From positions 13,243 to 77,242 of the forward strand of contig SHZE01000001.1 in the NCBI GenBank assembly GCA_009692435.1: a DNA stretch of 64,000 nt, in the 5' to 3' direction. A program made the position numbers and the translations under genes. This document shows, piece by piece, positions 11,962 to 50,456 of this stretch. The notes under the pieces are model-generated. The model saw only the letters and a list, made by a program, of their open reading frames with translations, did not search any database and was not told the origin of the DNA. The stretch's first letter is position 1. Every line of letters begins with the position of its first letter. The DNA comes from Deltaproteobacteria bacterium. GTDB lineage: Bacteria; Desulfobacterota; Binatia; Bin18.

Positions 11962-12003
11962 TACAGGTTCCCTCTCCCAGCCGGGAGAGGGTCAGAGTGA
12001 GGG
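11962..12003. repeat. 40-bp palindrome-containing dispersed element (copy 1): CCCTCTCCCAGCCGGGAGAGGG + TCAGAGTGAGGGGGAT
   Basis: Perfect 9-bp stem with 4-nt loop. A near-identical copy lies in inverted orientation at 46670-46712. Confidence 0.6.

Positions 12004-20495: not shown

Positions 20496-20497
<2 letters not shown>
20402..20497. repeat. ACGTAAA-unit palindromic element (family member 3 of 5); about 25-bp stem
   Basis: AGACGTAAAAAGCTGAGCGTGAACG pairs with CGTTTTACGCTTAGCTTTTTACGTCT; flanked by further CGTAAAG/CGTAAAACGTAAG units, in the gyrB-gyrA intergenic space. Confidence 0.65.
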
Positions 20498-22937
<2,440 letters not shown>

Positions 22938-23030
22938 CTATTGAAATTTTCCTCAAAAAAGTATCACGCCATAGAGTTTAAGTAAAGGTGAACACTGAGA
23001 GAAAAATCGTTCCAAAACAGTTTTACAAAA

Positions 23031-24185
23031 TTAAAAAATACGCATGGGCATGACGACATAAGAAAAATTTTGATCTTTCTCAGCTTGGATTAGGCACGGA
23101 CTCGATTCGTCCTTGAGCAGGAACGAGATTTTTTGTTCCCCTTCGAGGACAGAAAGCATCTCGATGAGGTACCGACCATTGAACCCGACGACGAGGTTTT
23201 CGCCCGCATAATCGATAGCGATTTCCTCGACCCCTTCGCCAAGGTCCGGGGTGTTGACCGAGATTTCCATTTTGTCTTTCTCGATCTGGATTTTGACGCC
23301 ACGCGATCGTTCGGTGGTGAGAATCAAGAGACGACGAAGGGCACTTAGTAGGTCCTCGCGAGAAAAGCTGACGACGTGTTTGGTATCTATCGGGATGACC
23401 TGGTTGTAGTCGGGAAAATCCCCCTCGACCAGGCGCATGGAGAGTTCCGTCGAGTCCCTAGCAACGTTAAGTGTTGAGCCGTGAAGCACGAGTTCAGTCT
23501 TTTCGTCTCCTTTTTCGAGTAATTTGCGGGCTTCAACGAGTCCTTTCCGGGGGAGAATCGCGCTAGGCCAGTCGATGGGCACAGTGCCGAACGCTTCGCG
23601 TTCGATGAAAGAAAGTCGGTGCCCGTCACTGGCAACCATTCTGAGACGGCCGTTTTCCTGCCCCTTTGGGGCCGTGCGGCCCTCCAAATAGACTCCGCTG
23701 AGGTTGGGGCGGGATTCATCGGGAGAGGCCGCGAAAAGGGTTTTCTCGATCATTTCCCGTAACGTCTGTCCGGCAATGGCAACTGATACTAACGGTTTCT
23801 TTCCTTCGACGTCGGCGGCAGGCGTGGAAACGAGTGCTGGGAATTCTTTAGGATCGAGGCTAGCCATACGGAATCTCGACTTGCCACTGCTGACCTCGAC
23901 CCAGCCGTTCCCGGTGGATCGTAACGAGACGCGATCTGGAGAAAGCTCTCGAACGATCTCGTACAGTTTGCGTGCGTCCGTCGTGACAGCCCCTTCTTTC
24001 TTGACTGTGGCTCTGCACTGCTGACGGAGGCCGATTTCGAGATCTGTCGCTCGGAGCGAGATCGCTCCGTCTTTCGATTCGATGAGTACATGCGAGAGGA
24101 TCGGCAAAGATGAGCGTTTCTCAACTACGCCTTGCACTAAATACAAACAGTGTAACAAATCTTCCTTTTCGAGAATGCTTTCCAT
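23031..24185 (-). CDS. dnaN: DNA polymerase III beta sliding clamp
   Basis: Three-domain, ~380 aa beta-clamp; the N-terminus LPILSHVLIE and overall length are consistent; located directly downstream of dnaA/oriC. Confidence 0.9.
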   Translation of the reverse strand: MESILEKEDLLHCLYLVQGVVEKRSSLPILSHVLIESKDGAISLRATDLEIGLRQQCRATVKKEGAVTTDARKLYEIVRELSPDRVSLRSTGNGWVEVSSGKSRFRMASLDPKEFPALVSTPAADVEGKKPLVSVAIAGQTLREMIEKTLFAASPDESRPNLSGVYLEGRTAPKGQENGRLRMVASDGHRLSFIEREAFGTVPIDWPSAILPRKGLVEARKLLEKGDEKTELVLHGSTLNVARDSTELSMRLVEGDFPDYNQVIPIDTKHVVSFSREDLLSALRRLLILTTERSRGVKIQIEKDKMEISVNTPDLGEGVEEIAIDYAGENLVVGFNGRYLIEMLSVLEGEQKISFLLKDESSPCLIQAEKDQNFSYVVMPMRIF

Positions 24186-24504
24186 TCCTCTCTTCCCTTT
24201 CTTATATTCCCAATTTTTTTCCGTTCATTCGGAGTCTTCACATTTTCATGCCTCCTTTTTTCTACTGCTACTTCTTATTTTTTCATAATAGTAGCAGTAG
24301 GGGGTGTGAATATGTGGATAAGTGGCTTAACTATATAGATTCGTTAAAATAGTTATTCACACCCCCTGTGAATAACCCTGTGAATAACTTGACCGAGGCA
24401 AAAAGTTATCCACAGGTTATCCACAGGTTATCCACAGGTTATTCACAGGTTATGCACAGGGTTATGCACAGGGTTATGCACACCCTCTCAAACCCTGTTT
24501 CCAA
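24186..24504. other. oriC: Chromosomal replication origin oriC (dnaA-dnaN intergenic): AT-rich unwinding element plus a DnaA-box cluster
   Basis: AT-rich tract 24190-24300 with a perfect 10-bp inverted repeat CTACTGCTAC/GTAGCAGTAG. Consensus DnaA boxes TGTGGATAA (24313), TGTGAATAA x2 (24367, 24379) and TTATTCACA (24353). Followed by a head-to-tail array of 7 boxes. Confidence 0.85.
24406..24490 (+). repeat. Array of 7 tandem DnaA boxes with 11-12 bp period: (TTATCCACAGG)x3, TTATTCACAGG, (TTATGCACAGGG)x3
   Basis: Seen directly in the sequence. There are no spacers between the units, so this is not a CRISPR array. Three boxes are the perfect consensus TTATCCACA. Confidence 0.85.
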
Positions 24505-25866
24505 TTAATTTTCTTCTCCGAAAACTATGTTTTCAATCCGTGCGAGAACGGCCCGTAGCTCTTCATCCTGCTTGAGGCGTTTCTCAATAGAAGCACATGC
24601 GTATAACGCTGTTGTGTGATTTTTACCACCAAAGCGGACGCCAATCATGGGGTATGAAGCCCCAGCTAACTTGCGGCACAGGAACATGGCGACTTGACGC
24701 GGAAAGGCGACCATCTGTGTCCGTTTCTTAGAGGTCAGATCAATGACCCGGATAGCGAAGTATTTGCACACCGCTTTCTGGACCGTTTCGACCGAAACTT
24801 CTTTGTCCTTATCTTTTCCCCCTCTCATGAGGTTTTGTAGGACCTGCTGAGCAAGGTCAATCGTAATCGGACTGTCAGTCATGGTAGAAAAGGCCCCGAG
24901 CTTGGTGAGCCCGCCCTCAAGCTCGCGAACATTAGCGGTCACGTGGGTCGCGATAAAGAGCGAGACATCGTGAGGGAGCTGGATTTTCTTTTGTTGCGCC
25001 TTTTTTTGGAGGATGGCGACGCGAGTTTCAAGGTCTGGTGGTTGGATATCGGCGATCAATCCCCACTCGAAGCGATTTCGCAGCCGCTCTTCGAGTCCTT
25101 CAATCTCGTTGGGAAATTTATCGGACGTGAGAATGATCTGCTTGTGGGATTGGTGAAGCGTATTGAACGTATGGAAAAACTCTTCTTGGGTCCGTTCGCG
25201 GCCGGAGAGAAACTGGATGTCGTCGATGATTAAGACATCCGCCTGGCGGAACTTATTCTTAAAGTCATCCATGCGGTCACGCCGTAGATGCGCGATCAAT
25301 TCATTAGTGAAAGTTTCTGACGATAAATAGAAAACACTCTTCCCACCTTGCTTCACGATCGTTTCGTGCCCAATCGCGTTAATGAGGTGAGTTTTTCCTA
25401 ACCCGACACCACCATAGATAAAAAGCGGGTTATAGTGCTTGCCTGGATGTTCGGCGACCGCGCGTGCGGCGGCATTGGCAAATTGATTGCCAGCACCAAC
25501 GATAAAAGAGGAGAACGTATAATTGGAGACCAGCCCGTTCTTTTTCGTGCCAGTGGAGCGTGAGGACTCCCCCTTTGTGTTCTCCCGGTCGTCATATTGT
25601 TGTGACGGAAATAGCTCGCCCTGTTGTTTGGCCGCGACATGGATGACGATCTGGACCGCGAAGCCAAGAATGGTTTCGAGCGATTTCCGAATATGGGGTA
25701 GGAGATTTTCTAATAACCAGTCACGGAACAACGAATTCGGCACTTCAAGGTGCAGCGTGTCCTCGCGGAGTGCGAGGGGTTTCACTGGCTTGAGCCAGGT
25801 TTCCGTCGTGACATGACCGACCTTCTTCTCAACCTCATTAAGGACCTGCCCCCATATATGCTGCAC
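24505..25866 (-). CDS. dnaA: Chromosomal replication initiator DnaA (start trimmed to the GTG at 25866)
   Basis: AAA+ motifs GVGLGKTHL, sensor regions and C-terminal DnaA-box-binding domain. The 58 N-terminal codons of the 511-aa ORF cover a palindromic pair of DnaA boxes (GTTATTCACACCTGTGAATAAC, 25899-25920) and have no DnaA domain-I similarity, so the true start is likely downstream. Confidence 0.85.
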   Translation of the reverse strand: MQHIWGQVLNEVEKKVGHVTTETWLKPVKPLALREDTLHLEVPNSLFRDWLLENLLPHIRKSLETILGFAVQIVIHVAAKQQGELFPSQQYDDRENTKGESSRSTGTKKNGLVSNYTFSSFIVGAGNQFANAAARAVAEHPGKHYNPLFIYGGVGLGKTHLINAIGHETIVKQGGKSVFYLSSETFTNELIAHLRRDRMDDFKNKFRQADVLIIDDIQFLSGRERTQEEFFHTFNTLHQSHKQIILTSDKFPNEIEGLEERLRNRFEWGLIADIQPPDLETRVAILQKKAQQKKIQLPHDVSLFIATHVTANVRELEGGLTKLGAFSTMTDSPITIDLAQQVLQNLMRGGKDKDKEVSVETVQKAVCKYFAIRVIDLTSKKRTQMVAFPRQVAMFLCRKLAGASYPMIGVRFGGKNHTTALYACASIEKRLKQDEELRAVLARIENIVFGEEN

Positions 25867-26267
25867 GCCGCCCCCCTCCCGTTGTTTCGCGAGAAGGGAG
25901 TTATTCACACCTGTGAATAACTCTCCAACATGACCTAATGACTGAAGTTTTTCCCCTTGCACCACAAAGTTCTCCACATACTTCTCCCCCGCCTTTTCTC
26001 TCTCCATCCCAGGGAGGCCCTGGCATCCGCCAAGCATCAATGGGGAAGAGGGGGTAAGCCTTCACTATTTTTACTGTTCTGTGTCGGAAAAAAAGAGATT
26101 GAACTGAATGAGTATGGGAATGGAGTAGACTCTTTTTTTTCCCTTTGCAAGCAAAAAAATGTACTCCGGCAGAAGTGGTTGTGTTGTCTATCGTTTTGGT
26201 TTGCCTTGACTCACAAAATGTCGGATGGTAACAGGATGAAAGTCTTTCACGCGCAGGGAACATTTCT

Positions 26268-37031: not shown

Positions 37032-37445
37032 CTAGGTCATTTCTTTCTCTGGAATTCGGGCGGTCTCCCCTTTTTCCGCGATAGTTCTGATGAGTGCTAT
37101 CAGTTTGGGGTCTGAAAGCTCAACAAGATCACGATGCCAACAGGTATTAGCCTCCTGGTCAGGGGTGTCCCCGACCGTTTGCTCAACCTTGATGCTGAGC
37201 GTCGTCAGCAGCGCTTCGTCAACGAGCGCATAATCGAAGTTCGAGAAAAAATCTCTTGTAGAGGCGAGAGCAATGACGACCTGTTCCAGGTTTGACCTGT
37301 CGTCCTCGATATACCAAACCGAGAGGGTTGAGTTCTCTGGCACAAAGTCTTCAAGGGGACCGTTCCGTATCTGATCATCCGTCGGAGAAGTCCCCATGAT
37401 CTCGTGCCATCTCCCCTTACGGATACTCCGTAGGAGAAACGGCAC
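37032..37445 (-). CDS. Hypothetical protein (islet gene 3 of 3)
   Basis: 137 aa, acidic, no recognisable motif; its 5' end overlaps the upstream gene by 29 nt. Confidence 0.4.
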   Translation of the reverse strand: MPFLLRSIRKGRWHEIMGTSPTDDQIRNGPLEDFVPENSTLSVWYIEDDRSNLEQVVIALASTRDFFSNFDYALVDEALLTTLSIKVEQTVGDTPDQEANTCWHRDLVELSDPKLIALIRTIAEKGETARIPEKEMT

Positions 37446-38112
37446 TACGGGTGCTCTCTAGTTGATAGTGTACTTGTTTTAAGTCTTCACGAAGCGAGGC
37501 ATACTTTTCGTGATCAATTGCCTGCCGCAGATAGGGAATTGCGTGTGGGTCATCAAGAGACGCTAGCCCTAGCGCTGCCCCGTCTCGCACCAACACCGAG
37601 GTGCTAAACAGGCTTCTTTCCAGCAACCACAAGCGATCATGATGGGACAAAGGATGATCCACACGACCAAGCCAACGTAGCGTTTCCGCTGCGACTTCTG
37701 CGTTAACGTTGTCGTTGACAGTCAAGGAAGTGATTACCGCCATTGCCGTCTTTCCGTACTGCCTTACCAGATGTACTAACTCCCTGGAGAAGTCGTTCTC
37801 CATCCCGTCCTCGAAAGTAAGGCTTCGTGCTTCCCGGAAAAGAGCCTTGAGAATTTTTCCCAATGGTTCCTCTTGGGTGATTATGTTTCCTGGTCTTTCT
37901 TGGGAGAATAGGTCGATTTCTTCTAGCAGTTCACGCTGGGTAGTCGTGTTGTCTTTACTCACGAGGCTCGTCCGAACAACCGTTAAATCCTCTTTTGAAT
38001 CTCCCGTGAGTATGAGGTAGTGAGCAGAGTCCCATACTCGTTGTGGCTTGTAAAAGCTGTGAACTGCCAAGTCCGTTCCTGCTGTTGAAGAAGGAACCAT
38101 GTCGGGTCTCAT
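37417..38112 (-). CDS. Hypothetical protein with C-terminal HEAT-like (PBS-lyase type) repeats (islet gene 2 of 3)
   Basis: Repeats of the form AAxALGxLxDPxAIPYLRQAI (AEVAAETLRWLGRVDHP; DGAALGLASLDDPHAIPYLRQAI); 4-nt ATGA overlap with the upstream gene. Confidence 0.4.
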   Translation of the reverse strand: MRPDMVPSSTAGTDLAVHSFYKPQRVWDSAHYLILTGDSKEDLTVVRTSLVSKDNTTTQRELLEEIDLFSQERPGNIITQEEPLGKILKALFREARSLTFEDGMENDFSRELVHLVRQYGKTAMAVITSLTVNDNVNAEVAAETLRWLGRVDHPLSHHDRLWLLERSLFSTSVLVRDGAALGLASLDDPHAIPYLRQAIDHEKYASLREDLKQVHYQLESTRSAVSPTEYP

Positions 38113-38894
38113 GGAATATCCCCTTCTCTAGCGATTTCCTGTCCGAGGGTCACTAACTCGTTAAAGATTTGGCCTAACTGATCTTGTGGCAAGTCCCCTG
38201 GAAAATCCGGGTGGGTGTTAATATCCAATTCTAATCGACAACCCGTACCCTTTTGATGAAACCTAAATCTCGCCTCTGGGACCAACGGAAGTTCAGCTAT
38301 TGCCCAAAAAGACACGGACCATTTGGAAAGACGATTGATCCTAAGTCCTGCAATCGCCGAACTGGAGTTTCTTGCACGATTGATTTGATAGAGAAAATCA
38401 CTTGCTCCTTCACCTTCAAGGGCGAGTTGTAGACCGGGAAGATACGCGGCAAGCTGTCGGTACCCGGTTTGCTGATCATCAACAGGCTGCCAGAGTGTTG
38501 CTCCGAAGGCTAGCCGTTGTGTAACAGGACACTCCCTAGATTCTAACCACCGGGTCATAAGCTGGGGAAAAATATTCAGTGATTCAGGGAGAGGGCCAAT
38601 CATTGTAGGTCCTCCTCTCTCTGACTCCGCATTGTCTGCTGCACGATAAAGCCAATCAACCCGAGACGGCTGAATGGTAAGGATTAGCCTTCTGTCCGCA
38701 AAAGAGCCCTCTTCGCGTCGTATTCCCAGTTTCCGCTGCGTCACTTGTGTTTCTGAAGGTTCCCCAACGAGAGACGTCCACCAGCGGGGTTCAGCCTCGA
38801 TTTGAGCAGCAGGACTGAGAAAGGCAGTCATCCTCATACTTTCCACTTCCCATGCGGAGAGTGGGGGGCGCGCTAGTGTTTTTATCGCAGTCAT
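38109..38894 (-). CDS. Hypothetical protein (islet gene 1 of 3)
   Basis: 261 aa; no ATPase, nuclease or other motif recognised. An AT-rich promoter-like region (TTGAGA-N17-TAAAAT on the - strand, about 38920-38950) lies between it and the tRNA. Confidence 0.4.
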   Translation of the reverse strand: MTAIKTLARPPLSAWEVESMRMTAFLSPAAQIEAEPRWWTSLVGEPSETQVTQRKLGIRREEGSFADRRLILTIQPSRVDWLYRAADNAESERGGPTMIGPLPESLNIFPQLMTRWLESRECPVTQRLAFGATLWQPVDDQQTGYRQLAAYLPGLQLALEGEGASDFLYQINRARNSSSAIAGLRINRLSKWSVSFWAIAELPLVPEARFRFHQKGTGCRLELDINTHPDFPGDLPQDQLGQIFNELVTLGQEIAREGDIP

Positions 38895-38973: not shown

Positions 38974-39047
38974 TGCCCCCGGCGCGATTCGAACGCACGA
39001 CCACAGGATTAGGAATCCTGTGCTCTATCCACCTGAGCTACGGGGGC
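38974..39047 (-). tRNA. tRNA-Arg (anticodon CCT)
   Basis: Reverse complement folds as a 74-nt cloverleaf: acceptor stem GCCCCCG/CGGGGGC, D-arm GCTC..GAGC, anticodon arm CAGGA-TTCCTAA-TCCTG (anticodon CCU), T-arm GTGCG-TTCGAAT-CGCGC, discriminator A; CCA not encoded. Confidence 0.85.
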
Positions 39048-42661: not shown

Positions 42662-43756
42662 ATGAAAGCAGCAGTATTGTACGAACTAAAAACCCCATTA
42701 AAAGTCGAGGATGTCGATCTGGATAATCCGAAGAGTGGTGAGGTCCGCGTCAAAGTGGTCGCCAACGGGGTGTGCCACAGTGACTACTCCGTCATTCATG
42801 GTGTATTACGTTCGCCGTTGCCGGTCGTGCCTGGGCACGAGGGAGCCGGGATTGTCGAAGAAATCGGACCTGGGGTCACAATGGTTAAACCTGGCGATCA
42901 CGTCGTGTTATCGTTCGCCCCCTACTGCGGCCATTGCTTTTACTGCTCGATCGGGAGCCCGGTGCTGTGCGACAACATGCGCATGACGATGGGAAAAGGG
43001 ACGCTCCTTGATGGCACTTGCCGCCTCAAGAAGAACGGCAAGCCGATTCATCACATGGCGGGACTGTCTAGTTTCGCCCAGTATGCCGTGGTCGCGGAAT
43101 CGTCCTGCATCAAAATCGCCAACGACGTACCGCTGGAAAAAGCCTGTTTGGTGGGCTGTGCGGTAATGACCGGCGTGGGCGCGGCCATCAATACCGCCAA
43201 GGTGCAACCTGGCACGAGCTGTGTGGTCATTGGCTGCGGTGGCGTCGGGCTCAACACGATTCAAGGCTGCGCGCTGGCCGGCGCGGCGACAATCATCGGC
43301 GTCGATCTCATGGACAGCAAACTGGAGTACGCGAAACAATTTGGCGCGACGCATACGATCAATCCGAGCAAACAAGATTTAGTAAAGACTGTGCGGAGTC
43401 TCACCGAAGGACGCGGCGCCGATTACGCCTTTGAGGTGATTGGTCTTGGCAAAACCATTGAGCAAGCCTACGCCTGCTCGCGCCAAGGTGGGACGACCAT
43501 CGTGGTGGGCGCGCCGTCACGCGAGGACACGGTGACGATTCCGGCGTCGAGTCTGTTGACGGAAAAGATCATCAAGGGCTCGGTGTATGGCTCCTGCCAT
43601 CCACACGTGGACATGCCGCGACTGATTGATCTGTACATGAAGAAGAAACTCAAGATCGACGAACTCGTGTCGCGGACGTACTCGCTTGATGAAGTCAACA
43701 TCGCGATGACGGCGCTCGAAAAAGGCGAAGTCGCGCGGAGCGTGGTGGTAATGTAG
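42662..43756 (+). CDS. Zinc-dependent alcohol dehydrogenase (class III-like)
   Basis: GVCHSD catalytic-Zn motif, structural-Zn Cys cluster C..C..C..C, and Rossmann motif GCGGVG. Confidence 0.85.
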   Translation: MKAAVLYELKTPLKVEDVDLDNPKSGEVRVKVVANGVCHSDYSVIHGVLRSPLPVVPGHEGAGIVEEIGPGVTMVKPGDHVVLSFAPYCGHCFYCSIGSPVLCDNMRMTMGKGTLLDGTCRLKKNGKPIHHMAGLSSFAQYAVVAESSCIKIANDVPLEKACLVGCAVMTGVGAAINTAKVQPGTSCVVIGCGGVGLNTIQGCALAGAATIIGVDLMDSKLEYAKQFGATHTINPSKQDLVKTVRSLTEGRGADYAFEVIGLGKTIEQAYACSRQGGTTIVVGAPSREDTVTIPASSLLTEKIIKGSVYGSCHPHVDMPRLIDLYMKKKLKIDELVSRTYSLDEVNIAMTALEKGEVARSVVVM

Positions 43757-43908
43757 GCGGACGCGCCGCACCGGGCCGTCGGCGGTATGAGCAGAGGAAA
43801 ATTTCTACCAATAGACAGAACCGTCTCTTGGTAGAGCCTCTCTCTACGCGGACCATCAGCAGTTGGCCATTTTACATAAAGTGAACGGCAACGTTCAATA
43901 GGGCAACT

Positions 43909-45111
43909 ATGTTCGAAACCCGCATTTTTGAACAGATTCGCGAATATTGGATCACCGATCAAAACCGGCGGGGGACCCGAAAACAATCGATTCCATCGTT
44001 ACAAGATTTCGTCACGCTGATAGAGACCGCCTTCATTGTCAGTCTTAAAAGGGAAGAAGAGCGCTTTCCAAAATTCTCCGTCGTGCTGCTAGCAGAAAAA
44101 GACAAAGAGAAAGAACAGGAGTCTTCAGGTTTCAGGCAAGAAATCCTGATCTTGGATAGAAGACTTTCCTTTAGTCCTGACTCTCTGGCGAAACTCTCAC
44201 CTGCATGCGACCCGCAGACAGGTGCCTTCATTGTTTCCCCACCAGAGGATAGTTCAGGGAACTATGAAATTTGGGGCCTCATGTTTTTTGGTCCGGTGAC
44301 CAATCGATTCAACGAAATACCTATTTCCGACGAATTCATTACCTCTCGCCCAGATGTGCTCACAGTTACAGTGGTCTCACTCGGGTCTCTGGTAGTCAGC
44401 AGAGGCAATAGTCAGATCGGGCGTTTCGTTCTTGGTAACTTTAGTCCGGCAACTCCAACGCCTTTTGTGTCGCAAGCGATGGGCGAGTTTATGATCGCGT
44501 CAATCAGGAATAGCCAGGGATATCAGAGGTATGGAAATTTATATTGGCACATTTATCGAGATGCCTTAGAGCATTTGTTGCTGGAGGCCGGAGCCAGAGG
44601 ACATGGCGGAACTATAATTGTGATACCGGGAAACAAAGTGACCGAATGCAAGTCGAGTTTTCAAGCCAGGTATTCTCTACAAACCACACTGCGAATTATA
44701 GAGTTGATTGAGCAGACTCTTGCGTTACCGCACCCGTGTGATTTTTCTCGTTATCTTTCCTATAATCGTGCGACTATGGGCCGCTTGAATTTTTTGGCTC
44801 AGTTAGTTTGCGTGGATGGAGCCTTACTTCTTTCGGACCAGTTTGAGCCTATTGCTTTCGGGACAACACTAACGGCACAAGCGTGGCAAGGCGGTGTTGT
44901 TGTTGGGCCGGACAGTTTTAGTAGTGGAGGTCAAGAGTTTAATCTGTCGAGGCTCGGAACTCGCCACAATTCCGCGGCGAATTTCGTCGGCGCGTTTCCA
45001 TATTGTTACGGCTTCGTCTTATCACAAGATGGACCTGTTCGGGGGTTCATTAGGAGGGATGAAAACACACTGTATTGCTGGCCGGATTGTACAGTGTCCA
45101 TGTTCATATGA
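43909..45111 (+). CDS. Divergent DAC (DisA_N, diadenylate-cyclase fold) domain protein with an unknown ~200-aa N-terminal domain; lies in a low-GC islet
   Basis: The C-terminal half aligns to the DisA/CdaA DAC domain: GHGGTIIVIPG ~ (K)IGALIVFE; VDGALLLS ~ HDGAVII; LGTRHNSAANFV ~ LGTRHRAAL; FVLSQDGPVRGF ~ VVSEETGIISL. The canonical HDGA and RHR motifs are altered to VDGA and RHN. Local GC (~48%) is well below the ~60% flanks. Confidence 0.5.
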   Translation: MFETRIFEQIREYWITDQNRRGTRKQSIPSLQDFVTLIETAFIVSLKREEERFPKFSVVLLAEKDKEKEQESSGFRQEILILDRRLSFSPDSLAKLSPACDPQTGAFIVSPPEDSSGNYEIWGLMFFGPVTNRFNEIPISDEFITSRPDVLTVTVVSLGSLVVSRGNSQIGRFVLGNFSPATPTPFVSQAMGEFMIASIRNSQGYQRYGNLYWHIYRDALEHLLLEAGARGHGGTIIVIPGNKVTECKSSFQARYSLQTTLRIIELIEQTLALPHPCDFSRYLSYNRATMGRLNFLAQLVCVDGALLLSDQFEPIAFGTTLTAQAWQGGVVVGPDSFSSGGQEFNLSRLGTRHNSAANFVGAFPYCYGFVLSQDGPVRGFIRRDENTLYCWPDCTVSMFI

Positions 45112-45266
45112 TGAACAGGCGTTATTTCAATAGGACGCAGTCGGAATCCAACTTCCCAATTCATTGCACCGTATTACCGTCCAGTGGAGGTTCCTGCTTA
45201 ACCCGGACGGATACGGTTCGAGCAAACGATCTTGACGGCAACCGATAAGCCGACGACGGGAAATGC

Positions 45267-45536
45267 ATGACAAGGGTTCAAAGAATCCGGCTCAAGATCA
45301 TTGATCGGGACTATTATCTTTCCTCTCATGCGGAAGATGAGATGCTGGACGATGGATTGGAGCGGGGCGATGTCGAGAACGCCATATTGAAGGGACGCGT
45401 TCAGAAAAAATTATCTAAAGATGCGCGGGGCACTCGTTATCGCATCGAAGGTCCAACAAAAGATGGCCGGCTGATCCATGTAGTTTGTCGATTTCAGGAA
45501 GATGGTAGTCTCATTGTGGTTACAGATACGCGCTAA
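45267..45536 (+). CDS. DUF4258-family protein (putative toxin of a TA pair)
   Basis: 89 aa; motif DYYLSSHAEDEMLDDGLERGDVENAIL resembles the DUF4258 core; paired with a downstream zinc-finger gene. Confidence 0.45.
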   Translation: MTRVQRIRLKIIDRDYYLSSHAEDEMLDDGLERGDVENAILKGRVQKKLSKDARGTRYRIEGPTKDGRLIHVVCRFQEDGSLIVVTDTR

Positions 45537-45546
45537 CGGAGGAAAC

Positions 45547-45767
45547 ATGACGTGCGAATTTTGCGGAGGCGAGACAAGAAAAAGAAAGTTAAGCGACAAC
45601 ATTGGCTTCAGGGAAAGCTCTATATCGTCGAGAATGTTGAAGCCGAGGTCTGTCCGCAGTGCGGAGAACGATACTTCCACGCAACGACGCTGGACGCAAT
45701 TGACCAGTATTTGCTAGCTGACCATCACATCAAAGAGCAAATTCACGTCGAGGTCGTCAGCTTGTAG
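45547..45767 (+). pseudogene. YgiT/MqsA-type zinc-finger protein (putative antitoxin), disrupted by a 1-nt frameshift in an A-rich tract
   Basis: Frame 1 gives MTCEFCGGETRKRK and frame 0 continues VKRQHWLQGKLYIVENVEAEVCPQCGERYFHATTLDAIDQYL, together matching the TIGR03831 pattern CxxCGG...VCxxCGExY. The frames switch inside gacaagaaaaagaaagtt near 45585; adding one A restores the protein. Confidence 0.5.
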
Positions 45768-45840
45768 GATGCCAGAACGCGTAAGCAATGGGGCTTCATC
45801 TGAAAAATCTTACGCTAGACAAAACTAGGAGAATAAACCC

Positions 45841-46638
45841 ATGCTTCAACAAGCCATAGATTTTCGCGAGGAAAGCGAAGCGCTCTTCGCGCTCCTTGAT
45901 CCGTTGACAGATCAGGACTGGGAGCGGAAAACGCAGTTCAAAGAGTGGACCATCAACGACGTGATTGCCCATCTCCACTTTGGCAACTACCTCGCTGACT
46001 TGTCATTGCAAGACAGCGATGCCTTCGTGGAGTTTCTCCGTCGTTGGGGGGAAGACCGCAAACAACGGGGGAATAGAGCGGCAACTGACGCCTGGCTCAA
46101 TGGCATGAAAAATCGTGCTCTGTTGCAGCACTGGCGCGAATTCTATCTGGAGATGACACCGCGATTCATTGTCGCCGACCCGAAAAAGCGCGTCAAATGG
46201 GCGGGTCCTGATATGAGCGTCCGTTCCAGTATCACCGCTCGGCTCATGGAAACCTGGGCGCACGGGCAAGCGGTATACGACCTGCTTGGCCACGTCCGTC
46301 ATGAGGAAGACCGCATCCAAAACATCGCCGTCTTGGGGGTCAATACCTTTGGCTGGACGTTTACGAACCGGGGAGTCGCTGTACCAACAGACCCGCCTTA
46401 CCTCCGGCTCACCGCACCATCAGGGACAATCTGGGAGTGGAATCCCCCTGCTCAACAAGGGAATCGGGTTGAGGGAAACGCGGTCGAGTTCTGTCAAGTC
46501 GTGACCCAGGTCAGAAATATCGCCGATACCACACTGCAAGTGACTGGGGCAACGGCCACCACGTGGATGTCGATTGCCCAGTGTTTTGCTGGTCCGCCGG
46601 AAAATCCGCCAGCACCAGGCAAACGATTTCGGCAATAA
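45841..46638 (+). CDS. DinB/MDMPI-like (maleylpyruvate isomerase N-terminal domain family) metal-binding protein
   Basis: N-terminal four-helix DinB_2/MDMPI_N-like region with WTINDVIAHL and ETWAHGQAV His motifs; ~265 aa. Confidence 0.45.
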   Translation: MLQQAIDFREESEALFALLDPLTDQDWERKTQFKEWTINDVIAHLHFGNYLADLSLQDSDAFVEFLRRWGEDRKQRGNRAATDAWLNGMKNRALLQHWREFYLEMTPRFIVADPKKRVKWAGPDMSVRSSITARLMETWAHGQAVYDLLGHVRHEEDRIQNIAVLGVNTFGWTFTNRGVAVPTDPPYLRLTAPSGTIWEWNPPAQQGNRVEGNAVEFCQVVTQVRNIADTTLQVTGATATTWMSIAQCFAGPPENPPAPGKRFRQ

Positions 46639-46669: not shown

Positions 46670-46712
46670 CCTCACCCTAGCCCTCTCCCAGCCGGGAGAG
46701 GGAATTGCGGAC
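46670..46712. repeat. 40-bp palindrome-containing dispersed element (copy 2, inverted relative to copy 1)
   Basis: ATCCCCCTCACCCTAGCCCTCTCCCAGCCGGGAGAGGGAA is the reverse complement of 11962-12003 with 3 mismatches. Confidence 0.6.
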
Positions 46713-46741: not shown

Positions 46742-46793
46742 GAGACTGGTCTGAGACTGGTCCTAGACTTGGTTTGGGACTGGCCTGAGACTA
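46742..46793. repeat. GAGACTKG-unit tandem repeat (about 5 units) in the MDMPI-xerD intergenic space
   Basis: gagactggtct gagactggtcct agacttggttt gggactggcct gagact. The same unit occurs at 8607-8624 and inside kdsB at 62703-62766. Confidence 0.55.
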
Positions 46794-46800
46794 CCCCTCC

Positions 46801-47730
46801 CTATCCTCGCGGATGGAATTTTTTGTGGACTTCACGCAGCCGTTCACTGCTGAGGTGCGTATAAATCTGTGTCGTTGCGATGTCCACATGTCCCAGCATC
46901 GCTTGGACAGCACGCAAATCGGCACCCCCGTCGAGGAGGTGAGTGGCAAAGGCATGGCGCATGGCGTGCGGGTTGAATTTGCCGCCCTCTGGACTCTGGA
47001 GCGCGTAGTCCTTCAGCAATCGCCAAAAGGTCTGACGTGAAGGCGGCTTGGCCGCGCGTGTGAGAAAGAGATACGAACTGGTGCGCCCTTTCAACAACCG
47101 CGGCCTCGCCGTGGCAAGATAATGCTCCAGCTTCTCCTTTGCACTTGACCCCAGCGGCACCACCCGCTCCCGCCCCCCTTTTCCTCGCACCCGCACGAAT
47201 CCGGCTTCAAGATGTAATTGTTTGACCTCTAAGCGCACTAATTCAGAGACTCGTAACCCCGTCGCATACAGCAATTCCAACATAGCATGGTCGCGCACAC
47301 CAGTTGGAGTGGATACATCTGGACGATCCAGCACGGCATCGACTTGCTGACGCGACGGGACCTGCGGTAGGCGTCGTCCGATCTTCGGTAACAGCAAGTG
47401 AGACGTTGGATTACTCCTCGGCAGAGCCTCTTCCCGTTCGAGAAATCGGTAGAACCGCCGTAGGGTTGTCAGCACGCGCGATTGACTCCGGGCGGAGAGT
47501 CCACGGTCTCGCAATGTGCCGAGAAATCCCACCAGATGCCGAGAGCCAGCGGCCCTCAGCGTTGGCTCTTCTTGGATGGCCATATAACGACAAAACTCAG
47601 CAAGATCTCGGTGATAGGCTTCAATCGTGTTCTGCGCGAGTCCACGCTCAACGGTGAGATACGAAAGAAACTCATCGACTTGGGTATCTTGCGCCGAGAA
47701 GGAGGCCCCTGACGATTGCAGGTCACTCAT
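46801..47730 (-). CDS. xerD: Tyrosine site-specific recombinase XerD/XerC
   Basis: N-terminal core-binding domain (FLSYLTVERGLAQNTIEAYHRDL) and catalytic R..HxxR..Y motifs (HAMRHAFATHLL..., TQIYTHL). The start overlaps the glnD stop (TGATG). Confidence 0.8.
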   Translation of the reverse strand: MSDLQSSGASFSAQDTQVDEFLSYLTVERGLAQNTIEAYHRDLAEFCRYMAIQEEPTLRAAGSRHLVGFLGTLRDRGLSARSQSRVLTTLRRFYRFLEREEALPRSNPTSHLLLPKIGRRLPQVPSRQQVDAVLDRPDVSTPTGVRDHAMLELLYATGLRVSELVRLEVKQLHLEAGFVRVRGKGGRERVVPLGSSAKEKLEHYLATARPRLLKGRTSSYLFLTRAAKPPSRQTFWRLLKDYALQSPEGGKFNPHAMRHAFATHLLDGGADLRAVQAMLGHVDIATTQIYTHLSSERLREVHKKFHPRG

Positions 47731-50456
47731 CACGCTGCCCCACGAGTGACCTGCAGTTTCTCCCGCAGTTGTCCAGCAAGCTGATCGGGGTTGGCGACTT
47801 TCACGCCATTATGGTCCGTCACATAAAATACATCCAGCACATGGTCCACATTGGTATTGATCTTGGCCAGGTGAATCACCAATCCCATCGTAAATAACGT
47901 ATAGGTAACGGAGAAGAGCAGCCCCATACGATCCGGCGCGGTGATGTCGATCACGGTGTAGTTGGTGGAGCTGTGGTTATCCACCTCGACATCCGTGCCA
48001 TAGCGGGAGGAGTGCTTATGGAGAAAAGACGGGACACGGGTGGCGCGCAGGAGATCGTCAAGCGTGCGTTTGCCTCGCAGGACCTCTTCCAGTCGCGCGT
48101 AGATATGCGTCCAGGTATCGGCATCCATCACCATGTTCCCCCGGTCGGCATGGGAAATCTGGAACACATCCAAGGCCAGCCCCTCGCTACTGGTTGTGAT
48201 CCTCGCTCCGCCAATACTGAGCCCCGCCGTGGCGAGGACGCCGGTGAGCATCGCGAACAGCCCGGGGCGATCCTGGGTCGCAATGGTGAACTCACTGTAC
48301 TCGCGTTCGGGAAAATGGAGCAGGGTGGCGCGGTACGCGTCCGTGTTGCCATTCGCGGGTTGCGTGAAGCGAGTCACAAGCTGAAAATGGCGGGGAATCG
48401 CTTCCTCCGGGGTCGATAATAAATAACTTTCCGGCATCGCGGCGAGAAACGTGGAGATGGCATCCACGGGAGCCGTCGCTCGGAGAGCGTGTATCAGCCG
48501 ATCTTGACGACGAACGAGACGCGCTTCCCGGTTCTCCTCAACTGGCTCACCGGTCTCCAGCCACTCTAAAGCGCGCAGATAGAGTTCATCGAGCAGCCCC
48601 CCTTTCCACGGGTTCCAGACTTTTGGACCAACCGCTTTCATATCGGCAAAGGTCAAGAGATACAGCTTCTTGAGCAGGGCGGGGGTCTCCACCATACGAG
48701 CAAATTCCGCGATCACGGTTTCGTCGGAGAGGTCTTTCCGTTGAGCGATAGAGGACATATGCAAATGGTGCTGGACGAGGAAGTGCCATTCGTGAGTCTC
48801 GTCCTGCGGGAGCTGCCAGCGCGCGGCGGCGGCTCGGGTCATCGCGGCTCCGCGTTCATCATGGTCGTGGCCGTAGCCTTTCCCGACATCGTGGTAGAGC
48901 ATGGAGAGAAAAAGAAATTCAATCTTGTCAATTTCGCGAATGACCTGCGTGAGCAGCGGGTGGTCGGCTTTGTACTCGCCATTGCGCAACCGCTCTAATT
49001 CGACGATGCCACGGAGCGAATGCTCATCGACGGTAAAGAAATGGTACATGTCGCGTTGCGTTTGCCAGCGTAGCCGACCAAATTCCGGCAAGAGCCAGCC
49101 CAGCACGCCCAGATCGTGCATGGTCGCGAGGGAGTAAGATACGCGCTGCTTCCACGCCAACACCGCGAAAAGTTCCGCCCGCGCCTCTGGGGTATCGCCC
49201 AGAGCTGGGGGGAGCTGTTGGACGTGGTCAGCAAGGAGGCGTTGGGTGTCATGAGCGATCCGCACCTCATGCCGCTGCGCGTCGTGGAAAACGGTGATGG
49301 CATTAAGCGGGTCGGTGGTCAGGATTTTCGCATCCGACACGACCAAGGTGCCATCAAGAATGCGCACGCCCTCCCGGATTTCTCGCCCGCCTGGACGACT
49401 GAAGAAACCAGAGAATCGCGGCGTGGGCCGACACCGTTCAAGGAGCCTCTCCGAAAAGGCGGAAATGGTCGTGGCGTGGCGATAGTATTCCCGCATAAAG
49501 CTGGGGACATCGGCGAAGCCCAGCGCTGGAGCAAGCGCATCTTGTCGCTCAAAGGTCAGCAGGTCCTGCTCCGCGTGCTCGGATAAATGCAGGGCATTGC
49601 GGACCCGCCACAGAAAGTCCCGCGCGGCTTCCACTTCCTTGAGGGTGGCGGCCGCGAGCACCCCTTTGGGAATGAGTTCGCGCAGGTCGCGAATCTTGAA
49701 CTTGACTTTCGCCAACCACCCGGCGGTGTGCAGATCGCGGAGCCCGCCTTTCCCTTCCTTGAGGTGCGGCTCCAGAATATAGATCGAGTCTCCGTAGCGT
49801 CGATGCCGCTCCTGGCTTTCGTTGGCTTTCTCTTGAAAGAAACGGTCGGCATTCTTATTGACGATCTCTCGCTCCACCGCAGTGGTGAACTCTTGCACCA
49901 ATGGTTCGTCGCCGCACAAGTAACGGTAGTCGATGAGCGCGGTTTTGACTTGGAAGTCCTGATTGGCCAAGCGGACACATTCGCGGACGTTGCGCACGGC
50001 GTGCCCAATCACGAATCCGGCGTCGAGTAAGCTGTAATACAGGGTCTCACAGATAGTCTCGACGTAGGGTGAAATTTTCCAGTGGTAGAGAAAGAGGAGG
50101 TCAATGTCGGAATACGGGTTCAGTTCACCACGACCGTAGCCCCCTTGAGCCAGCACGGTGCAGCGTTGATTCAGCCGGGGATTCCGTTGGGCATAGATTT
50201 GGGAGGCGGCGGCAAAGAGGTACTGAATCAAGCGGTCGATGTACCGCGTATGGAGCGTGACAATCTCGGTGCCCGTTGCGTTCGCCGCGTGCTGGAGAGC
50301 GAGCTCGGCGAGAACGCGCGCATGATATTCCTTGCTAATCGCGCGCAGATTGAGTGGCGGTTCCGTCGCCTCATCCAAGTTGCTTGGTGGCAGTGGCGGG
50401 AGAGGGATCGGCACGGGAGTCGAGGTTGTCCGAGCAAGTGTCTTATCTGTTATCAT
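47730..50456 (-). CDS. glnD: [Protein-PII] uridylyltransferase / uridylyl-removing enzyme GlnD
   Basis: Nucleotidyltransferase domain, HD domain (HDVGKG...HDERGA) and two C-terminal ACT domains; 908 aa. Confidence 0.9.
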   Translation of the reverse strand: MITDKTLARTTSTPVPIPLPPLPPSNLDEATEPPLNLRAISKEYHARVLAELALQHAANATGTEIVTLHTRYIDRLIQYLFAAASQIYAQRNPRLNQRCTVLAQGGYGRGELNPYSDIDLLFLYHWKISPYVETICETLYYSLLDAGFVIGHAVRNVRECVRLANQDFQVKTALIDYRYLCGDEPLVQEFTTAVEREIVNKNADRFFQEKANESQERHRRYGDSIYILEPHLKEGKGGLRDLHTAGWLAKVKFKIRDLRELIPKGVLAAATLKEVEAARDFLWRVRNALHLSEHAEQDLLTFERQDALAPALGFADVPSFMREYYRHATTISAFSERLLERCRPTPRFSGFFSRPGGREIREGVRILDGTLVVSDAKILTTDPLNAITVFHDAQRHEVRIAHDTQRLLADHVQQLPPALGDTPEARAELFAVLAWKQRVSYSLATMHDLGVLGWLLPEFGRLRWQTQRDMYHFFTVDEHSLRGIVELERLRNGEYKADHPLLTQVIREIDKIEFLFLSMLYHDVGKGYGHDHDERGAAMTRAAAARWQLPQDETHEWHFLVQHHLHMSSIAQRKDLSDETVIAEFARMVETPALLKKLYLLTFADMKAVGPKVWNPWKGGLLDELYLRALEWLETGEPVEENREARLVRRQDRLIHALRATAPVDAISTFLAAMPESYLLSTPEEAIPRHFQLVTRFTQPANGNTDAYRATLLHFPEREYSEFTIATQDRPGLFAMLTGVLATAGLSIGGARITTSSEGLALDVFQISHADRGNMVMDADTWTHIYARLEEVLRGKRTLDDLLRATRVPSFLHKHSSRYGTDVEVDNHSSTNYTVIDITAPDRMGLLFSVTYTLFTMGLVIHLAKINTNVDHVLDVFYVTDHNGVKVANPDQLAGQLREKLQVTRGAA

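Follow-up and report, generated by a model that had tools for sequence, protein, structure and literature searches.

What fills the GC-poor gap between an alcohol dehydrogenase (ADH) gene and a xerD-like gene in the 64,000-nt stretch of contig SHZE01000001.1 (a Deltaproteobacteria bacterium of the Binatia; this whole stretch is called the window below), and do the genes in that gap belong to one system? A preliminary description of this DNA had seen there a protein with a diadenylate cyclase (DAC) fold beside a toxin-antitoxin (TA)-like pair. Our results indicated that positions 43757 to 45808, from the ADH stop codon to the 5' region of a TIGR03084 gene, are probably a horizontally acquired accessory islet and a composite of two independent mobile units, namely a gene for a cyclase-type second-messenger synthase and a decaying TA pair consisting of a DUF4258 toxin gene and a YgiT-type antitoxin gene. 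The limits of this variable islet were set by loss of blastn homology, GC content and synteny.

The interval 43757 to 45770 was the lowest-GC stretch of about 2 kb in the window, with 48.5% GC where the window averaged 54.6% (sd 2.4 for segments of this length), and less than 1% of such segments were as GC-poor. The GC dip described earlier was therefore real, but the flanks, put at about 60%, were found at 56-59%. The described change of codon usage was confirmed for two of the three islet genes: GC content at third codon positions (GC3) was 0.477 in the DAC gene (z -2.4) and 0.461 in the DUF4258 gene (z -2.75) against 0.603 ± 0.052 in the 48 other genes, while the YgiT gene did not deviate (0.59). 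Low GC by itself cannot serve as a diagnostic here, the dnaA-dnaN-gyrB region (20-26 kb) being equally low; this region and a further one at 37-39 kb both showed about 49-51%. The boundaries were defined by comparison with the two closest genome relatives, in which blastn homology was lost at 43760 and returned at 45840 (locus L033), or was lost at 43785 and returned at 45809 (L002), a homology gap that brackets the GC-poor stretch almost exactly. Compositional deviation and presence/absence polymorphism between conserved flanks were thus both present at the ADH/xerD gap. At the islet ends there was neither an integrase gene nor a tRNA, an att site or a target-site duplication, and the repeat search returned only chance-level 10-11-mers there.

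Both flanks are core genes. The left anchor is a Zn-dependent ADH (42662 to 43756, + strand; Pfam ADH_N and ADH_zinc_N), with orthologs in syntenic position in 20 or more Binatia loci; its orthologs were 96-98% identical in Binatia-type metagenome-assembled contigs and 75-90% identical in numerous further loci of Binatia, of which some belong to complete chromosomes. The right anchor, a xerD-like tyrosine recombinase gene (46801 to 47733, - strand; Pfam Phage_integrase and SAM_1), is convergent with ADH, and the XerD-GlnD pair was kept in all syntenic relatives, those with an empty gap included. A role of xerD as the integrase of the islet was ruled out, as it is a housekeeping gene beside glnD in every relative, even at empty sites.

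Comparison of relatives showed that the content of this gap varies greatly. The order enoyl-CoA hydratase, MeaB, ADH was kept in 20 of the fetched Binatia loci, and in 12 Binatia loci (including L011-L013, L015-L019, L021, L022 and L032) only 67-71 bp separated the ADH stop codon from the convergent xerD-glnD pair. In L033 and L002 the same slot was filled by a type II restriction-modification (R-M) system, with MTase_II (PADLOC, E 4e-124) and REase_II (E 1e-71) followed by TIGR03084, and L033 additionally carried a BrnT toxin gene. A DUF433/DUF5615 pair and two amidohydrolase genes occupied the slot of L009, the two amidohydrolase genes those of L006 and L007, and a gene for a CAP-family protein that of L003. 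The earlier reading of the stretch as an acquired islet was supported by this comparison, with the gap empty in 12 loci and R-M cargo in the closest relatives. These results demonstrated that the ADH/xerD gap is a small variable hotspot with alternative cargo, which collects defence and addiction modules. It is like other core-gene-flanked defence or accessory hotspots in its fixed ADH and xerD-glnD flanks and in a cargo of R-M systems, several TA types, metabolic genes or nothing; it differs in being very small (0-3.7 kb) and without integrase, tRNA or att site, its neighbouring xerD being a housekeeping gene. It offers, for the poorly studied phylum Binatota, a clean natural example of a tiny core-flanked hotspot in which accessory enzymes, R-M systems and no fewer than five kinds of TA module are swapped.

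The islet itself was recovered at the same site in L171, a JGI contig, as a block of the DAC 3' end, DUF4258 and YgiT genes with 87.8% nucleotide identity, 48.7% GC and an intact TA pair. The flanking core genes of L171 and the window were 86.6% identical, a value similar to that of the block. Because block and flanks have diverged to the same degree, the gain of the block predates the split between the lineages of the window and L171, and its presence in L171 with matching composition means that the insertion is not recent. The same gene set with the same composition in relatives would point to an ancestral rather than an acquired block, and in this respect the outcome was divided: L171 has the block, but equally distant relatives hold other cargo, so that an origin ancestral to the group is not supported. 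L171 also showed, at 1107-2798, a 76-aa open reading frame (ORF) and a HicB-like gene inserted in the 5' end of TIGR03084, with a duplicated 78-aa MDMPI_N fragment left behind, a further insertion into this hotspot.

The first unit of the islet is the gene at 43909 to 45111 (+ strand), which encodes an intact 400-aa protein. Its N-terminal ~200 aa contain a match to PF21751 (DACNV) at aa 25-125 (60.8 bits against a Pfam cut-off of 27, E 1.5e-16), and its C-terminal ~195 aa have the fold of a DAC domain. DACNV, which Pfam calls "Probable sensor domain DACNV", was reportedly defined by Galperin in J Bacteriol in 2023. The AlphaFold2 (AF2) model of the whole protein had a pLDDT of 88 and a pTM of 0.83, and the best 50 PDB matches listed by Foldseek (E 8e-5 to 2e-3; 38 at E<=0.001) were all DisA, CdaA, DacA or CdaM, with TM-scores of 0.5-0.66 normalised to the CdaA chains and a sequence identity to solved DACs of 11-16%. 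The DAC fold proposed earlier for the C-terminal half holds, because the model matches only DisA, CdaA/DacA and CdaM among the listed structures. In an alignment of 35 homologous sequences, PF21751 was matched by all 35 and PF02457 (DAC) by 24 (E<=0.01, best 4e-08). The residues D303-G304-A305, G350, R352-H353, S355, S372 and D374-G375-P376 were invariant, and the motifs G350-T-R352-H353-x-S355-A and S372-Q-D374-G375-P376, an R-G-H-G-G strand motif and a C-terminal W-P-D-C were further conserved. The DGA codons lie at 44815-44823, and RHN, in place of the canonical RHR, is encoded at 44962-44970; the match to the canonical DGA is deduced from fold and Pfam matches and not from a residue-level structural alignment. 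A pattern scan of every locus retrieved yielded no canonical CdaA or DisA with which the motifs could have been aligned.

Compared with the DisA/CdaA/DacA/CdaS/CdaM family (PF02457), the DACNV-DAC family shares the C-terminal DAC fold, the DGA motif and the R-H of RHR. The window protein differs in lying below Pfam detection and in having RHN for RHR and SQDGP at the place of the canonical DAC motif SEE(T)G; a transmembrane segment, HhH or CdaS-type N-terminus is absent, and the ~200-aa DACNV-containing module is present instead. It matched the DACNV-containing DAC architecture (PF21751) over its full length, and nothing essential differs. By its sequence, the putative cyclase of the window is assigned as a new member of the uncharacterised DACNV-DAC family.

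This family is uniform, with members of about 400 aa. One search returned 172 clusters at 90% identity, and an exhaustive one, counted at E<=1e-30, gave 591 at 50% identity. The longer members are fusions, in which a GAF domain (P0276, P0294, P0304 and P0311, ~600 aa) or a REC-PAS unit (P0296, P0306 and P0315, ~670 aa) precedes DACNV-DAC. As such REC-PAS/GAF fusions are the classic layout with a cyclase as output, a role in signalling is suggested. Across 84 DAC-homolog loci no conserved neighbour was found, and only clade-specific ones recurred, notably a PAS histidine kinase. When the 150 nearest neighbours in about 60 loci were classified with Pfam and PADLOC, PAS/HATPase_c, acetyl-CoA hydrolase, transpeptidase and GNAT were the top families, and there was no enrichment of TA or defence genes. 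Phospholipases and S2TM-beta effectors were not among the 25 commonest families of these 150 neighbours, and none adjoined the gene in the window. The homologs stood in diverse contexts. In L167, L168 and L170 these were housekeeping contexts; the L166 homolog lay amid MNT/HEPN pairs, a GIY-YIG gene and an S24-MTase; and in L169 (4455-7826) the genes next to a homolog encoded a tyrosine integrase and a family-B DNA polymerase and those downstream ParA and Phd/PIN, an arrangement that resembles a pipolin-like self-replicating mobile element. No relatives of the protein were found in viral contigs, plasmids or PHROGs.

In seven of nine long loci (L082, L083, L084, L086, L166, L167 and L168), the GC content of the DAC gene was 6-18 points below that of its surroundings. 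DAC homologs with 76-79% identity to the window protein were present in L086 and L082, the latter in a genomic context different from that of the window, and the proximal upstream region at 43860 to 43908 (+ strand) was conserved with the upstream regions of both, travelling with the gene; it is likely the gene's own promoter/ribosome-binding-site region. All these results suggested that the DAC gene is horizontally mobile and stand-alone, without a conserved partner. What the analysis adds at the family level is an intact active-site signature, an N-terminal module without a fold relative in the PDB, REC-PAS and GAF fusions, strong evidence of mobility together with low GC, the lack of a partner and the setting in a hotspot; nothing in the islet as it stands overturns expectations.

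The second unit follows after a spacer of 155 nt. The DUF4258 (BECR-fold) toxin gene (45267 to 45536, + strand) was confirmed by a PF14076 match of 57.9 bits (cut-off 25), and it proved to be frameshifted as well, which had escaped the preliminary description: compared with the intact 94-aa protein of L171, one T is missing between 45525 and 45526, leaving a C-terminally truncated product of 89 aa with an altered C-terminus. The YgiT-type zinc-ribbon antitoxin gene (45547 to 45767, + strand; TIGR03831), described from the outset as a frameshifted YgiT/MqsA-type gene, has indeed lost one A relative to L171 in the run at 45579-45583 (A6 to A5), a -1 shift that places the first CxxC in another frame. 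The TIGR03831 score was 41.6 bits for the GTG-start ORF and 54.6 bits after repair (cut-off 20.2). The GTG-start reading equals P0131, named YgiT-type zinc finger protein by NCBI, and the intact 73-aa homolog P0121 was 96% identical. The models of MqsA proper stayed below their cut-offs (TIGR03830, 26.9 against 61.8 bits; PF15731, 18.2 against 30), and the 73-aa protein is without a helix-turn-helix (HTH) domain.

Intact pairs were found in L171 and L172, toxin first, with proteins of 94 aa and 73 aa and a 4-bp overlap; in L172 the pair occurred without a DAC gene. The antitoxin had more than 1000 homolog clusters, the best 120 of which (P0121-P0240) were 71-98% identical over the matched length and came from several phyla. 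Such strong conservation suggests a rapid and recent horizontal spread of the TA module. An independent Logan assembly was 100% identical over 4765 bp and reproduced both deletions. Programmed -1 frameshifting in the YgiT gene was considered and rejected, as L171 has A6 at this position and almost every homolog listed is encoded by one ORF of 73-74 aa. Since each gene carries a 1-nt deletion, the DUF4258/YgiT module is most likely decaying. The DUF4258 family has been classed as a BECR-fold type II toxin, and DUF4258-MqsA fusions are known (Gerdes 2025, PMC11980606); its target is unknown and no member has been tested experimentally (PMC11980606). The pair is like the known DUF4258/MqsA-like modules in its toxin-first order, in the 4-bp overlap of the L171 and L172 copies and in Pfam/NCBIfam matches above cut-off. 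It differs in that the window antitoxin is a zinc ribbon only, and in that both window genes are frameshifted.

Based on these results, we propose that the islet occupies what would be a recombination-prone gap between the convergent core genes ADH and xerD. The DACNV-DAC protein most likely dimerises via its C-terminal DAC domain and would condense two nucleoside triphosphates to cyclic di-AMP (c-di-AMP) or a related cyclic dinucleotide, an activity that the ~200-aa N-terminal module probably controls. The cyclase would thus be an accessory second-messenger synthase, serving as the output module of signal transduction. The DUF4258/YgiT pair, a predicted type II module with a BECR RNase-type toxin, probably once stabilised the insert. 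As no integrase, att site or target-site duplication was found, cargo may be exchanged by homologous recombination through the conserved flanks.

Several observations weigh against this proposal. The window protein did not match PF02457 at E<=0.1 (gathering score 27 bits), and no DAC was found by sequence when PDB chains were searched with the family profile or with the single sequence of the relative P0292; only the fold search found DACs. The third residue of RHR is N in the window protein and N, R, K or S across the 35 aligned sequences, a variation with which activity or product could differ from c-di-AMP. The N-terminal module (205 aa, pLDDT 81.5 when modelled alone) had no structural relative in the PDB (Foldseek, best E 0.43), so that the label "sensor" comes only from Pfam naming and position. 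No c-di-AMP receptor, phosphodiesterase or riboswitch was seen within the 64-kb window, where only a tRNA turned up; the search did not extend to the remainder of the genome. If the Logan contig was built from the same reads, both deletions in the TA genes could be assembly errors common to the two. Moreover, the R-M and TA modules that occupy the slot elsewhere leave room for a conflict-related role.

Four other explanations of the islet were weighed against these results. Under one of them, the DAC, DUF4258 and YgiT genes would form a single three-gene system, in which the signal of the cyclase releases or activates the BECR toxin by a CBASS-like logic. Their adjacency, common orientation and low GC in both the window and L171 agree with this idea, which comes close to the signalling or defence island of the preliminary description. 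Outside the window and L171, however, DAC gene and TA pair were nowhere found together, as none of the 84 other DAC loci contained DUF4258/YgiT, and the pair is self-contained, standing alone in L172 and having its own large set of antitoxin homologs. The 155-nt spacer, and an intact DAC gene next to two frameshifted TA genes, also argue against functional coupling. With no enrichment of defence genes near the homologs, and no PADLOC-DB v2 match to the islet proteins save a marginal zinc-finger one (E 0.012), the single-island view was not upheld, and a three-gene system appears highly improbable. In the window/L171 lineage, two independent units, the DAC gene and the TA pair, were joined by chance. 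It would also be conceivable that the block dates back to the ancestor of this Binatia clade, relatives having lost or replaced it, and that its low GC is a bias intrinsic to the genes. The near-equal divergence of block and flanks in L171, and the missing mobility genes, att sites and target-site duplications, fit this history. It is opposed by the 67-71 bp gap in 12 more distant syntenic loci and by the unrelated cargo of equally close relatives. DAC homologs at 76-79% identity in other contexts, the low GC of the DAC gene relative to many different hosts, and a TA module that is more than 75% identical across phyla and so points to horizontal spread make an ancestral block very unlikely.

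The two remaining explanations concern the DACNV-DAC protein itself. A catalytically dead DAC-like domain, acting as a nucleotide-binding (receptor) or scaffold domain, would account for the missing Pfam DAC match, the change of RHR to RHN and of SEE(T)G to SQDGP, and the low identity to solved DACs. The DGA, G-T-R-H and S-x-D-G-P motifs were nevertheless (nearly) invariant in the 35 sequences down to 33% identity, the pattern to be expected from purifying selection on an active site. Enzymatic activity has been shown for divergent defence DACs with about 25% identity to DisA and with DGA/RHR residues (bioRxiv 10.64898/2026.08.10.743927), and a dead domain was considered distinctly unlikely. 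The protein could instead be a conflict or defence enzyme, a third class beside DS-2C and PanS, whose effector is encoded elsewhere or which acts alone, and the slot would then be meaningful. A part in anti-phage systems was recently demonstrated for DAC domains, namely for DS-2C, a DACNG-DACNH-DAC protein of a CBASS variant, and for PanS, the minimal DAC of Panoptoo (PMC13092281; bioRxiv 10.64898/2026.08.10.743927). The R-M systems of the sister genomes at the identical slot, one of them with BrnT, point in the same direction, and so do the conflict-gene and integrase surroundings of the L166 and L169 homologs, the GC content of the gene below that of its hosts and its patchy phyletic spread. 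DS-2C and PanS are like DACNV-DAC in their divergent DAC domains, DGA/RHR-type residues and variable genome regions; they differ in requiring partners (cGAS together with a phospholipase, or an S2TM-beta effector) and in having other or no N-terminal domains. DACNV-DAC, by contrast, is without a conserved partner and without defence enrichment. Together with the PADLOC outcome, the plain housekeeping contexts of several homologs, the REC-PAS and GAF fusions typical of physiological signalling, and the absence from viral contigs, plasmids and PHROGs, this renders a conflict enzyme unlikely. A bolder version, which we hold to be quite unlikely, is that DACNV-DAC proteins are partner-less, mobile, low-GC signal generators in defence/TA hotspots, with a receptor encoded by the host or in trans (for example for a PanS-like decoy or guard signal) and with the N-terminal novel-fold module sensing infection. 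Since the synthesis of non-canonical phage-defence signals by DACs is a very recent finding, a mobile DAC class with RH(N) for RHR is a reasonable candidate for product profiling.

Returning to the probable accessory islet, its right neighbour is the TIGR03084 gene (45841 to 46638, + strand; E 1.4e-90), the DinB/MDMPI-like gene previously noted before xerD, which encodes a metal-binding protein and lies outside the islet. Its GC3 was normal (0.62). Shared with L002, L033 and L171 and missing in Binatia further removed, this gene is a longer-standing occupant of the hotspot and not a part of the islet. The spacer between ADH and the DAC gene contains an extended imperfect hairpin without a U-tract (43785 to 43847, + strand), detected by repeat search and folding. 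The hairpin reported earlier was real, but its inner arms of 13 nt with one mismatch lie at 43804-43816 and 43823-43835, hence at 43804-43835 rather than at 43809-43842. Folding of the spacer 43757-43908 gave -59 kcal/mol (z -4.9). The hairpin was unique in the window, had no Rfam match and lacked a conserved counterpart in front of the DAC homologs of L086 and L082; within the islet there was no Rfam match, and the promoter/terminator scan stayed at background.

The palindromic element and the tandem repeat noted before xerD were both found, beyond the islet, in the spacer between TIGR03084 and xerD. The 22-nt palindrome CCCTCTCCCAGCCGGGAGAGGG has exactly two copies in the window, at 11970-11991 and 46681-46702, where none would be expected by chance, and it is a REP-like element. 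The tandem repeat has an 11-nt unit, GAGACTGGTCT, in 4.5 copies at 46742-46792. Judged from ORF translations, similar elements seem to be present in the same spacer of L033 and L002. Elsewhere in the window, gyrB, dnaN and dnaA stand in a row at 20496-26040 (- strand), so that the region of the chromosomal replication origin probably falls within the window. Finally, a tRNA-Arg(CCT) gene at 38974-39047 (- strand) abuts three low-GC3 ORFs at 37032-38894, one of them with a GC3 of 0.43 (z -3.4); HEAT_2 was their sole Pfam match, and they may be a second, tRNA-associated islet.

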